In this document: positions 36,661 through 62,337 of the stretch, one piece after another
Layout of the letters: each line of letters opens with the position of its first letter
How positions within the stretch are numbered: position 1 is the stretch's first letter
Source of the DNA: Saccostrea cucullata
Lineage: Eukaryota
Direction of reading: 5' to 3'
DNA length: 63,277 nucleotides
Assembly (NCBI RefSeq): GCF_032062105.1
Contig: NW_026935147.1
Location: 1-63,277 of the forward strand
Program-made: the position numbers and the translations under genes
Notes under the pieces: generated by a model
The model's database searches: none
The model's input: only the letters and a program-made list of their open reading frames with translations
What the model was told of the DNA's origin: nothing

Positions 36661-37209
36661 TCAGTCATCAGGGGTAGTTTCCTCTTGCTTTACCTCTCCT
36701 TTTTCTTGAGATTGTTTTTCTTCAGGCGATAAAGGGATGCGACAATATACATACACTTTATAAATAGGCCTATCTGTAAAAATTCCGATAAGCTTCTTTT
36801 CTTCTCGAAACCTCTTTTCTATCAATTGATGAAAACACAATCCAAGTTGAATTTTCCAGGAACTCTTCTCCCCACAATAAGGCCCACTCATGATCTCCAA
36901 TTGGTATTTTTGTTAACCGTAATATCCATTTTTTCTCTCCTTCAGACAGTATTTTTCTTCTCTGGTGTCAAGATTTTTTTCATAATCTTCAGGATCCAAT
37001 TCCACTCTTTTTACCAACCAAAATTTTTTGTACTTTAAATTCGGTGGCCATTTTAAATAATTTCTGTTGCGTTCATAAAAATTCTGGATGGCTTCTTCTT
37101 TAGTTTTCATCCATTTTCCAAAATGTTCTCCGTTAATAGACCAACAATACTCCGTTTCCTCTGTCATATTTTTTGTCTGCTCCATTTTTTTACCTGTGTC
37201 CAATTCCAA
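36661..37209 (-). CDS. Orphan two-domain Polinton protein, paralog A; in-frame TAA at 36913-36915
   Basis: Similar to 61870-62337 (YCWSI..FGKWMKTK vs YRWSI..FGPWMKTK; YVYCRIP vs YLYCRIP); same TATA promoter. Confidence 0.75.
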
Positions 37210-37238
37210 GTACTCACACAGACTGATCGTCCATGTCC

Positions 37239-37430
37239 AGCTCCGCTTTATATACCTTTACTGTTGCATCATCTTTTTTATACTTGTTGCATCATCTTTT
37301 GATATCTGTTGCATCATCTTTTTTATACCTGTTGCATCATCTTTTTATAGCTGTTGCATCATCTTTATATATCTGTTGCATCATCTTTATATATCTATTG
37401 CATCATCTTTTTTATACCTGTTGCATCATC
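37239..37430 (-). promoter_or_regulatory. CARE/ATF4-like array 2 (8 copies) plus TATA promoter of paralog A
   Basis: Minus strand GATGATGCAACAGTAAAGGTATATAAAGCGGAGCTG is identical to 61760-61795. Confidence 0.7.
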
Positions 37431-37551
37431 TGTAAGGGGGGCCGTGTGCAAAAAATACCATAGACTTACCTATGCATCGTGACGTCATCCACTGTATAAA
37501 TACAGGTTTTCTCCGACTTTCGGCTCATTCTACAGTCAGAGCCGGCTTCTA

Positions 37552-40500
37552 TTGGGGTCATGGATTCTACTAGAGAAAAACAGGTACAGGCTCAACGAAT
37601 ATTTGAAACGAAAAAGTACCGAGAGAGAAATAGATTTACCACCTAAACCCATTTCTGAGTATTATCATATGAGACTAGCTCAAGAAAGGACCTCTTCAAA
37701 ATTTAAAGCGCATGAAAATAGATATGTCGTTCATTTCGATGAATTTCCAGAAGAAGAAGAAAACACAGGATTCGTTCGGCGATTATTCAGAAACATGTTA
37801 CAAGACTTCAAATCTGAAATGCAATGTAATCCTAACGATTACCTCCGCCTGAACCTTCATCACGATTCTCTGGAATCAGACATTTCGTACGAGTTTACCC
37901 AATGTAAAGATTTAAACGAAGACGTCATTTTTAAAAAAATACAAGACGTGCAACAATCCAAAAAGGAGTTCAAACTGGGCGACGGCTCCACTGAATTCGA
38001 TCTGTTACACATCAAGTATCCTGAAGGAAGTGGTGGAGACAGAACCAAACATTTACAAGTGAATAAGGAGACTTTTAAGAACAATAAAAGAGCCATCGTT
38101 CGGATCGTCAATCCCTGGGATAAATTTGTTTAGCTAGAGCCATCGTCGTCACTCGATTACACAGTCAAAAACCCGAACATCCAGACCCCGAATGGGAAAA
38201 ACAATGGCTTCGTATGCGGAAAGGAGATGTAAGAGCCAATGACCAGAAGAACCAAGCCATAGCCCTCATGGAACAGGCCGAGTGTGATATCACTCAAGCT
38301 TGTGGATATGCAGAGTGGACGAAATTACAACAGGTATTAGCTCCTCAGTATCGACTGAAAATATTTCAGTTCAAGTCTACTTCGACTAAACTCACCTTAG
38401 AGCGCATCTTCAAAGGCTGGGGAGACGGAACTTGTTTGAACATTTTGTTAGACGACCATCATTACGATGCCATCATATCCATGCCGGGAGTAACGGGGAA
38501 CCAATATTACTGTGATCATTGCGACGTGGGGTACATGAATGTCACAGAACATCGCTCCAAATGCCCTCATCGCTGTACCTTTTGTTTAGGACATCACCCT
38601 AATTGTCCCGATGAAGGGATCAAGATTAAATGCCAGGAATGCCATGGAATGTTTAAGAACAGGACCTGCTACGAAAATCATTTAAAACCCCATAGTAAGA
38701 AGACCACCACTACTGTCTGCAATTTAATGGAACAATGCGAGAAGTGTCAGTCTTGGATACCTAAGAAATTATTCCCTCATCACAAGTGCGGAGGACAGAA
38801 ACAGTGTAAGATCTGTAAGAAAATCGTCGATACCGATCATCAGTGCTACGTACAACAGAAGCTTCAGAAGAAGAAGAAGGGGAAAGGGACCTTAGAGTTT
38901 TACATCTATTTCGATTTCGAATGCACTCAGGAAACCGGCATTCACATCCCTAATCTGTGTGTGGCACACCGCGTCTGTCAACATTGCAGTCACTTACCCA
39001 TAGACCAACCCTGTCCTCATTGTCAACACATGGGACCCCGTCAGCACCTATTTCAAGGACCAGACACCTTAAAGAAGTTCATGGACTGGTTATTACAACC
39101 CACTACAGGTACTAAGAATTCCACTTTAGTACACGACGAGGCCATTATCATCGCCCATAACTTCAAAGGCTACGACGGACAGTTCATTTTGAATCACCTG
39201 GTGCATTCCTCTTGCCTGAAACCTAACGTCATCATGACCGGCAGTAAGATCTTATACATGGAAATATGCGGACTGAAATTCATCGACTCGTATAGTTTCT
39301 TACCGTTTGCATTAGCCAAGATGCCCTCCGCTTTCGGATTCGACGAATTGAAGAAAGGCTATTTCCCCCACTTTTTCAATACGGAACAGAACCAGAATTA
39401 CGTAGGACCTTATCCACCGGCAGCTTTCTACAAACCGGACGAAATGTCTACCAGTGGACGAAAAGCTTTTTTTGAATGGTACGACCAACAGAGGGGGAAA
39501 GTGTTTGATTTCCTGAAAGAGTTTGTAGGGTATTGTGTCTCGGACGTCGACATTTTACGCCGATGCTGTGCAAAGTTTAGAGCCACCCTCAAGAGTTTGG
39601 TCAATGTGGACCCTTTCCAGGAATCCATCACTTTTGCCAGTGCTGCTAATTTAGCCTACCGTCGACAATTCATGCCTGAAGACACCATTGCCATCATTCC
39701 GAACCTCGGGTATCAACCGGCACGACAATATTCTGCTAAAGCCTTTCGGTGGCTCACCTGGATGAGTCAACAGACTGGATGTCACATACAACATGCCAGA
39801 AACGGAGGCGAAGTCCAGATCGGAAATTATACCGTCGACGGATACCAGGAAGCGACTCGCACCGTCTACGAATTTTACGGGTGCTATTGGCACGGATGCC
39901 CCACCTGCTATCCCAGTTTACAAACCGAAACTCATCCTCATCGGACCCAATTTACTTACCAGCAATTACACGAAGAAACCCTCAGAAGGACTGGCGATTT
40001 AGAAGACATGGGGTATACCGTTCGTGATATCTGCGAGCACGATTTCGATCAGCAAGTGCAAAAAGATGAGAGTTTACAGCAATTTGTAGGAAACCTGGAC
40101 ATTCCGGATCCTTTGAAACCTCGAGAAACCCTGTACGGAGGTCGGACCAATGCTACCCGATTATATTGTGAGGAAGGGGACATGAGATACGTGGACGTCT
40201 GTTCCCTATACCCTTACGTGTTGAAACACAGACCATTTCCCGTAGGGCATCCCGAGATCATCACAGACGAGTTCCAGGACGTGAGAAATTATTTCGGTCT
40301 CATTCACTGTCGGGTCTTACCTCCCCGAGACCTCTATCACCCCGTATTACCTTATCGGACGGGAGGCAAGTTATTATTTCCCTTATGTCGCACGTGTGCC
40401 GAACGACAGGACTCTACGTCTCAAGATCGATGTCCACACACCGACCAGGAACGTAGTCTCACAGGTACTTGGGTGACGACCGAATTACATAAAGCCCTAG

Positions 40501-61030: not shown

Positions 61031-61498
61031 ATGGATTTTTTAAGCTCAGAGTATCGTTGGAAAATAGTAGAACCTGAAGGGACTAGTCACAAAGGAGAAT
61101 GGATGAAAAACAAAGAGACATGTATTCAAGATTTCTTTGATAAGAATCCAGGACAAACAGGTCTCAATGAAATCTACCTGTATAAGAGATTCAAGTTACC
61201 GCACCGCCAAAGAAGCAAACATATGCTCTTAATATGACCCACATCACCTAAATATGGAGAATTTAAATGGAAAGTCAATTACGTCTTGGCTCACCGAACA
61301 CAGGGACCCGAGAAGACTTGGATTCATGGGAAATGGGTGAAAAAAGCCGGAGATTGTATAAAAGACTATTTGGAAGAAGTGGTCGTAAAAGGATACGATA
61401 TCATGGACTGTGCTTGTGAAACAGACTATTTGTACATGAGGAGACCTTTTCCCATACAAAAAGAACTGAACAGAAGTTTTGAATGTTTGTTATTATAA
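61031..61498 (+). CDS. Orphan two-domain Polinton protein, paralog B; in-frame TGA at 61235-61237
   Basis: ORFs 61010-61237 and 61286-61498 are in the same frame; YRWKI..GEWMK..CIQDF..YLYKR and FKWKV..GKWVK..CIKDY..YLYMR; TATA at 60963. Confidence 0.7.
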
Positions 61499-61579
61499 TG
61501 ATGTTCTTGTTATGAATCAATAAAATAAAAAAGAAAAAAACCCAAAAATTCTAGTGTTGTTATTTTTTCCTATATACAT

Positions 61580-61795
61580 ATGATGCAACAGGTATAAAAA
61601 AGATGATGCAATAGATATCAAAAAGATGATGCAATAGATATATAAAGATGATGCAATAGATATATAAAGATGATGCAATAGATATAAAAAAGGTGATGCA
61701 ATAGATATATAAAGATGATGCAACAAGTATCAAAAAGATGATGCAACAGATATCAAAAAGATGATGCAACAGTAAAGGTATATAAAGCGGAGCTG
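61580..61795 (+). promoter_or_regulatory. CARE/ATF4-like array 3 (9 copies) plus TATA promoter of paralog C
   Basis: TGATGCAAY every 22-23 bp, abutting GGTATATAAAG. Confidence 0.7.
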
Positions 61796-61869
61796 AGAGT
61801 ACCCTGCGCTCATTGTACTCAATTTTGAAAAAGGACACGGAACAAGTCAGACGTGTTTTTGTTTCAAAG

Positions 61870-62337
61870 ATGCAGTATCGCTGGTCTATTGACGAAGAAA
61901 CTTTTGGGCCTTGGATGAAAACTAAACTGGGAGCGGTGATGGATTATTTTGAACATCATCCAGGACAATTCATGAAGGATTTCAGGAAAGAATCATGGGC
62001 TGACCAGGGATTTCTTGCAAAAATATTTCCAGAAAAAAAAGTGTGGTTGGAAAAAAGAGTCAAAATCCCTTGCCCCCTCAAAGGATATAGAGTGAGGGTA
62101 AAAACCAACCAACATTATCAGCAATACAAATGGGAGATCCACGATGATCTTGGAACTCTAGCTAAAGGTCTCTGGTACATGTATTTAAAAGCGTGTATTG
62201 AAGATTTAATGAGGACCAAGAAAGAAGAAGAAGCCTTAAAAAGAGTTCTTCCAGACACTTATACACAGTACCTGTATTGTCGCATCCCCTTTACCCGGAT
62301 TAAAGACTGGATGGAAAAGAAAGGACTTGGGGTGTAG
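61870..62337 (+). CDS. Orphan two-domain Polinton protein, paralog C (intact)
   Basis: YRWSI..GPWMK..AVMDY..WLEKR and YKWEI..GLW..ACIED..YLYCRIP. Confidence 0.78.
   Translation: MQYRWSIDEETFGPWMKTKLGAVMDYFEHHPGQFMKDFRKESWADQGFLAKIFPEKKVWLEKRVKIPCPLKGYRVRVKTNQHYQQYKWEIHDDLGTLAKGLWYMYLKACIEDLMRTKKEEEALKRVLPDTYTQYLYCRIPFTRIKDWMEKKGLGV

Follow-up and report, generated by a model that had tools for sequence, protein, structure and literature searches.

An uncatalogued tandem-domain protein family in an oyster Polinton, with arrays of predicted ATF4-C/EBP-type sites before two of its genes

We analysed a 63,277-nt stretch of Saccostrea cucullata DNA (assembly GCF_032062105.1, contig NW_026935147.1, positions 1 to 63,277; hereafter the window), in which a Maverick/Polinton occupies the part from about 36229 onwards, its right end lying beyond the window. 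This Polinton holds three related genes, here called A, B and C, and three arrays of a short motif, TGATGCAA, as follows.

36661..37185, minus strand: paralog A, a 174-codon two-domain frame with an in-frame stop at 36913-36915 (codon 91) in the linker
61031..61498, plus strand: paralog B, a 155-codon two-domain frame with an in-frame stop at 61235-61237 (codon 69) in the linker
61870..62337, plus strand: paralog C, an open two-domain frame of 155 aa
37238..37431, minus strand: promoter cassette of A, with 8 TGATGCAA sites and a TATA 69 nt before the ATG
61580..61795, plus strand: promoter cassette of C, with 9 TGATGCAA sites and a TATA 91 nt before the ATG
36414..36540, minus strand: third array, with 6 TGATGCAA sites, downstream of A and facing the probable left terminus

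A first-pass annotation of this DNA had described three homologous frames with two copies each of a ~70-aa Trp-rich domain. The two motif copies per gene were confirmed for A, B and C; the start of A, placed at 37209, was moved to the first in-frame ATG at 37185, and the domain was redrawn as a core of about 50–65 aa in which Trp makes up 3.0–4.5% of residues, two of them conserved per domain. When domain pairs were compared with 2000 shuffles, seven of the 15 beat every shuffle (A1-B1, A1-C1, B1-C1, A2-C2, B1-B2, B1-C2 and B2-C2), and eight did not, including A1-A2 (912/2000) and C1-C2 (62/2000). Once relatives are included the repeat is clear: an HHalign comparison of the first with the second half of a 61-row family alignment gave a probability of 97.5% (E 7.9e-12; 34% identity across 53 columns). 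When the subfamilies of A, B and C were left out of a profile of first halves, it scored A2 at only 4.2 bits and the other five window domains at 16.7–70.5, in agreement with the earlier view of A2 as the most diverged copy; A2 is tied to the family via C2 (0/2000 shuffles). An AlphaFold2 model from the 61 rows (pLDDT 81.9, pTM 0.76) has the same order of elements in both halves. Judged from these profiles and this model, the genes are true paralogs made of two copies of one beta-beta-alpha-beta domain. In a 34-row tree of domains from 17 proteins, all first domains split from all second domains (96/94), indicating that the internal duplication predates the gene duplications.

Because A and B carry stops in their linkers, C is the only open two-domain frame in the window copy, and the first-pass annotation had not reported these stops. 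Open relatives of A (P0015, 96% identity; P0025, 95%) and open full-length relatives of B (78–92% identity) have an uninterrupted linker. We also compared the window with contigs from four runs of three samples, covering B, C and the integrase region. At the B stop (61235) all depth differed from the window in 4/4 runs, and nearly all depth in the four runs differed from it at an in-frame stop of the upstream integrase gene (60259-60261). Since the relatives are open across the linker and the runs differ at the B stop, the stops in A and B are decay of the window copy. Both stops fall between domains, as would be expected of programmed stops serving readthrough or deliberate one-domain genes; that explanation is largely refuted by the open relatives, by the reads at the B stop and by the private stop of the integrase, and we give it hardly any credence. 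Past the stop of C lie 16 in-frame codons that resemble the tail of an alternative C allele (see below). Contig depths over 59500-63277 run in the thousands in DNA-type runs, which may reflect free DNA or a family of high copy number, under two organism labels.

A search of sequence databases with C alone returned one match, and a search with four sequences returned eight; 23 matches were found among 1.84 billion representatives, and a 23-row profile gave 113. These relatives, several of them tied to Polinton neighbours, remove the orphan status first given to the genes. At 90, 75 and 50% identity the 172 proteins collected form 67, 40 and 16 clusters, respectively, many of the proteins being near-copies of one type. 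Only three relatives carry a name, all of them Saccostrea cucullata gene models. Pieces of Polinton neighbour genes occur in 6/174 proteins: two start with a homologue of the small hydrophobic open reading frame (ORF) that lies upstream of B, one with the ATPase start and three with a BIR domain. These proteins look like frameshifted or stitched gene calls and not true fusions; the neighbour pieces place the family in Polintons, and the pair with the small hydrophobic ORF shares the neighbour of B. The BIR part of one Saccostrea cucullata gene model is 92% identical to the IAP of the window. In the gene models P0017, P0018, P0034 and P0019 (three named Saccostrea), parts of B, C or A are joined to the Polinton IAP or to a ribosomal S7; these models are probably stitched annotations, splicing across Polinton genes being an alternative. 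Caution is due with oyster gene models annotated as IAP or ribosomal S7, several of which include fragments of these Polinton genes.

Within the family, a 33-row tree groups A with both C alleles at 96/96, and the stem of A measures 2.05 changes per column versus 0.07–0.18 for the tips of B. A and C thus pair up on long branches, and the type that is widespread is B, whose relatives occur in diverged Polintons. Known families gave no home to any of these proteins: A, B and C matched no Pfam family, the 61 members had only scattered Pfam matches below cut-off (best E 0.005), PHROGs yielded no family above cut-off (best E 0.004, one member each), and no match to the family was found in PDB or BFVD. 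This agrees with the earlier proposal of an expanded Polinton family without a known domain. The ERH (enhancer of rudimentary) fold gave Z scores far below 8 at 6–12% identity, tied with designed proteins, so that its likeness to the family is at most a common arrangement. DUF1508/YegP and the RNase H1 hybrid-binding domain were considered as leads, being small alpha/beta domains with a hairpin and then a helix; the former was rejected after HHalign of the 61-row profile against E. coli YegP gave a probability of 0.3% (E 0.21). We conclude that the Polinton protein family is real and uncatalogued and that its promoter is striking; the family may already carry an Adintoc number, the label used for conserved adintovirus genes of unknown function (see below).

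The three arrays hold 23 TGATGCAA sites (6, 8 and 9) spaced 22–23 nt apart, none of them broken; elsewhere in the window the motif occurs three times, versus 2.5 expected. All 23 units keep the 8-mer and fit NTGATGNAAN, and six are ATGATGCAAT, the preferred sequence in a human ATF4 reporter assay; by this resemblance the sites are of the ATF4-C/EBP type (CARE/AARE). They differ from known elements of that type in standing as 6–9 tandem sites at regular spacing in an invertebrate mobile element, and they are predicted sites only. Letters off the most frequent base number 0/184 in the array core versus 30/263 outside. The arrays of A and C both end 17 nt before the TATA, in gene orientation, and the two cassettes are 91% identical over 196 nt; B has a plain TATA at 60963 and no array. 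The first-pass annotation had credited two of the three genes with array promoters, which holds for A and C; the third array is an addition. Taken as predicted binding sites, the arrays of A and C suggest that the Polinton may tie these two genes to the host stress response. Back to back with the array of A, upstream of the gene for the protein-primed DNA polymerase B (pPolB), stand a palindromic TGACGTCA (CRE) at 37480 and a TATA at 37495 (together 37480-37502), and the array could serve pPolB and A both.

C occurs in two allelic forms that have an upstream leader in common. Compared with allele P0007, the scaffold blocks of C are identical at 25/31 and 16/21 positions and the variable blocks at 9/43, 0/24 (with a 20-residue indel) and 1/8. 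The internal blocks that differ lie at about 61885-62040 and 62134-62262, and contigs of the four runs break at 62134 and 62262, that is, at block edges, with more than one continuation. What is exchanged between the C alleles is thus loop and helix blocks, whereas the scaffold strands are retained. The alternative allele is also present in the Saccostrea gene model P0017. Contigs of the window type were found in all four runs at depths of 96, 70, 11 and 12; these are low next to the integrase contigs (4311, 106 and 695 in three runs), which suggests that window-type C is a minority allele, contig depth being no copy number. Joints from 61561-61570 to 62425-62429, also in all four runs, skip the array and C together.

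The explanation that we favour, tentatively and at somewhat less than even probability, is that A and C encode small binding proteins induced by stress and derived from an old accessory gene, B. B, which sits behind the integrase and the small hydrophobic ORF, would be an old Polinton gene, and its offshoots A and C would have taken up a common ATF4-C/EBP cassette. When eIF2-alpha kinases fire in response to double-stranded RNA, endoplasmic reticulum stress or starvation, host ATF4-C/EBP dimers would form, bind the arrays and turn A and C strongly on. Their products would be non-enzymatic binding modules with conserved Lys/Arg and aromatic residues, for which the predicted ligand is nucleic acid or an acidic host protein; they may help the Polinton to withstand the host response, and binding specificity may change with the blocks that C exchanges. 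A bolder form of this proposal, which we consider rather unlikely, makes the whole a built-in stress sensor, in which A and C are a diversifying pair with swappable specificity blocks and their counter-defence is launched as eIF2-alpha kinases halt translation. If that were true, a defined host signal would control an animal Polinton, and the genes would represent a family of viral proteins for host interaction that is new at the level of the fold. What activates animal Polintons, and whether they act as viruses that fight host defences, are open questions in the field; the former becomes experimentally testable with a cassette of only some 200 nt that carries a textbook stress motif, and a compact, confidently modelled, uncatalogued domain with natural block-swapped alleles offers a handle on the latter.

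Several observations weigh against the proposed stress induction and diversification of A and C. The third array has neither a TATA cassette nor a gene behind it, 16/23 sites end in C and not in the preferred T, and the ATF4 specificity behind the site assignment comes from mammalian data. The array core is matched in invariance by several spacer positions, so core conservation is weak evidence of selection and, together with the sites ending in C, this means that homogenisation alone could explain the arrays. Nor is there a general arms-race signature: B copies are themselves only 76–97% identical (21 pairs), with most differences in the linker and the second domain, while the nine nearest database relatives of C, which represent the alternative allele, are mutually 93–100% identical and relatives of A are 95–96% identical to it. 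Distant relatives, in a cluster of 67 members, hardly vary in the core of two domains. The tree tool also flags long branches meeting at the join of A and C. Fast evolution, claimed at first for the family, is therefore not supported for the family as a whole, because B is widespread in diverged Polintons and the 67-member core hardly changes; in line with it are the long branches of A and C and the block-swapped alleles of C. Alternatively, A and C may be dispensable duplicates under relaxed selection, their arrays minisatellites made by slippage and spread by conversion from a subterminal repeat, with only B keeping a conserved job. Relaxation also predicts long branches, and it suits the homogeneous spacers, the lack of a TATA cassette where the third array adjoins the probable terminus, and the absence of array and C from some copies. 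It sits poorly with the open A and C frames of relatives, with the retention of scaffold residues in both C alleles while blocks change with sharp edges, with the same 17-nt distance and orientation of both arrays, and with the recurrence of the alternative allele in a Saccostrea gene model; on balance we find it doubtful.

The position of the arrays, one subterminal and two preceding family genes, would also suit an element-encoded reader, possibly the family itself, acting as self-regulating DNA binders and marking the terminus for replication or packaging. The domain cores are basic (pI above 8.5 in 54/58) with conserved Lys/Arg, and tandem domains fit tandem sites. Yet the array site equals a known host bZIP element, the conserved member B has no array, a reader of fixed sites would not be expected to undergo whole-block allelic exchange as C does, and no DNA-binding fold stood out in structure comparisons, which leaves this explanation with a low probability. 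Lower still is the probability that the family condenses the genome or forms part of the virion core, as a small protein comparable to the MC1-domain proteins known from giant viruses, which resemble the family in being small alpha/beta domains with a hairpin and then a helix. The family is small and basic, and with a first, low-confidence model MC1-domain rows of BFVD ranked 1 and 42 (E 0.015 and 0.23); with the good model they were not within the best 50, 0/61 members match the Pfam MC1 family, and net charge is moderate (median +7).

The window element is like the adintoviruses, a group of animal Mavericks/Polintons, in its pPolB, its rve integrase with chromodomain, its A32/FtsK ATPase and its IAP (PMC8502044). 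Conserved adintovirus genes of unknown function ("Adintoc") and IAPs are listed by Starrett et al. 2021 (PMC8502044), the accessible text of which describes no family of tandem two-domain proteins present as three paralogs in an element, and no promoters with bZIP-site arrays. Four motifs of the family had no match in 4.0 million characters of its supplement, which stop short of the sequence file. Coral Polintons, too, have IAPs and accessory genes without a known function, in the portion of the preprint available (10.1101/2023.10.06.561300), and the available portions of PMC10294476 and PMC11464507 contain nothing on the family. No paper turned up in literature searches that paired Polinton with ATF4, or with oyster and IAP. 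A related use of the host response is provided by HIV, whose LTR is activated by ATF4: like the proposed Polinton, this integrating virus exploits the host GCN2-ATF4 stress arm for transcription, but it does so at its main viral promoter, whereas the window would have dedicated arrays before two accessory genes of a DNA element (PMC5414007, as far as its accessible text goes). In oysters, PERK is induced by poly(I:C), according to the accessible part of PMC9680061.

The remaining features of the Polinton are as follows.

36229..36402, plus strand: probable left Polinton end, AGTAGT at 36229 and then a G-rich 35-nt tandem repeat
37669..41450, plus strand: pPolB (PF03175, E 8.9e-58 at 38214-41450)
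41460..42101, plus strand: IAP-like gene with BIR and RING (PF00653, E 5e-20; PF13920, E 1e-12)
41954..42790, plus strand: A32-like packaging ATPase (PF04665, E 6e-06, above cut-off)
44884..59495, no strand assigned: foreign insertion of 14.6 kb with a 6-bp target duplication, its long inverted arms built from a 21-nt repeat
59599..60700, plus strand: rve integrase with chromodomain (PF00665, E 7.6e-11; PF00385, E 3e-09)
60672..60935, plus strand: small hydrophobic ORF directly upstream of B, a homologue of which also precedes the distant family members P0155 and P0174
62482..63277, plus strand: next Polinton ORF, a reading frame truncated by the window end

Polintons start with AG repeats. 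An upstream 154-aa frame of pPolB is out of frame with the 1078-aa frame. The insertion arms, of about 740 and 950 nt, are 96–99% complementary and their outer ends match; the insertion cuts the Polinton together with one of its ORFs, parts of which flank it. Since both inverted 21-nt arrays belong to a single insertion as its arms, A, B and C are three paralogs in one Polinton; two separate elements were considered and rejected on the matching arm ends, the target duplication and the split ORF. GC content is 38–42% in the Polinton versus 33% in the insertion, and 33–35% in the window outside the Polinton. Similarity between the insertion and parts of the Polinton was not found. The interior of the insertion is host-like; it contains tandem repeats with units of 146, 108 and 165 nt, and a DDE_Tnp_4 fragment at 49517-50089.

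Neither major or minor capsid proteins nor a maturation protease were identified in the window, past whose end the Polinton continues. The ORF at 62482, without a match in Pfam and PDB sequence searches, may resemble Polinton minor capsid proteins. Two basic ORFs with Gly-rich hydrophobic ends, at 42836-43474 and 43674-44102, have no Pfam match above cut-off, and may resemble Polinton core proteins with protease cleavage sites; a 92-aa ORF at 43368-43646 has a weak C2H2/BED zinc-finger match (E 0.013). Left of the Polinton, two largely open DIRS/Ngaro-like retroelements (5779-9951 and 17756-21301), with gag-like, RT-RNase H and tyrosine recombinase frames, were recognised by eye from translations, and long Cys/His-poor frames at 11487-13937 look like a transposon-like gene in pieces. 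A 165-nt repeat unit is common to 35680-35911, just left of the Polinton, and 54606-55090, within the insertion, and is possibly a host satellite or Helitron-associated.

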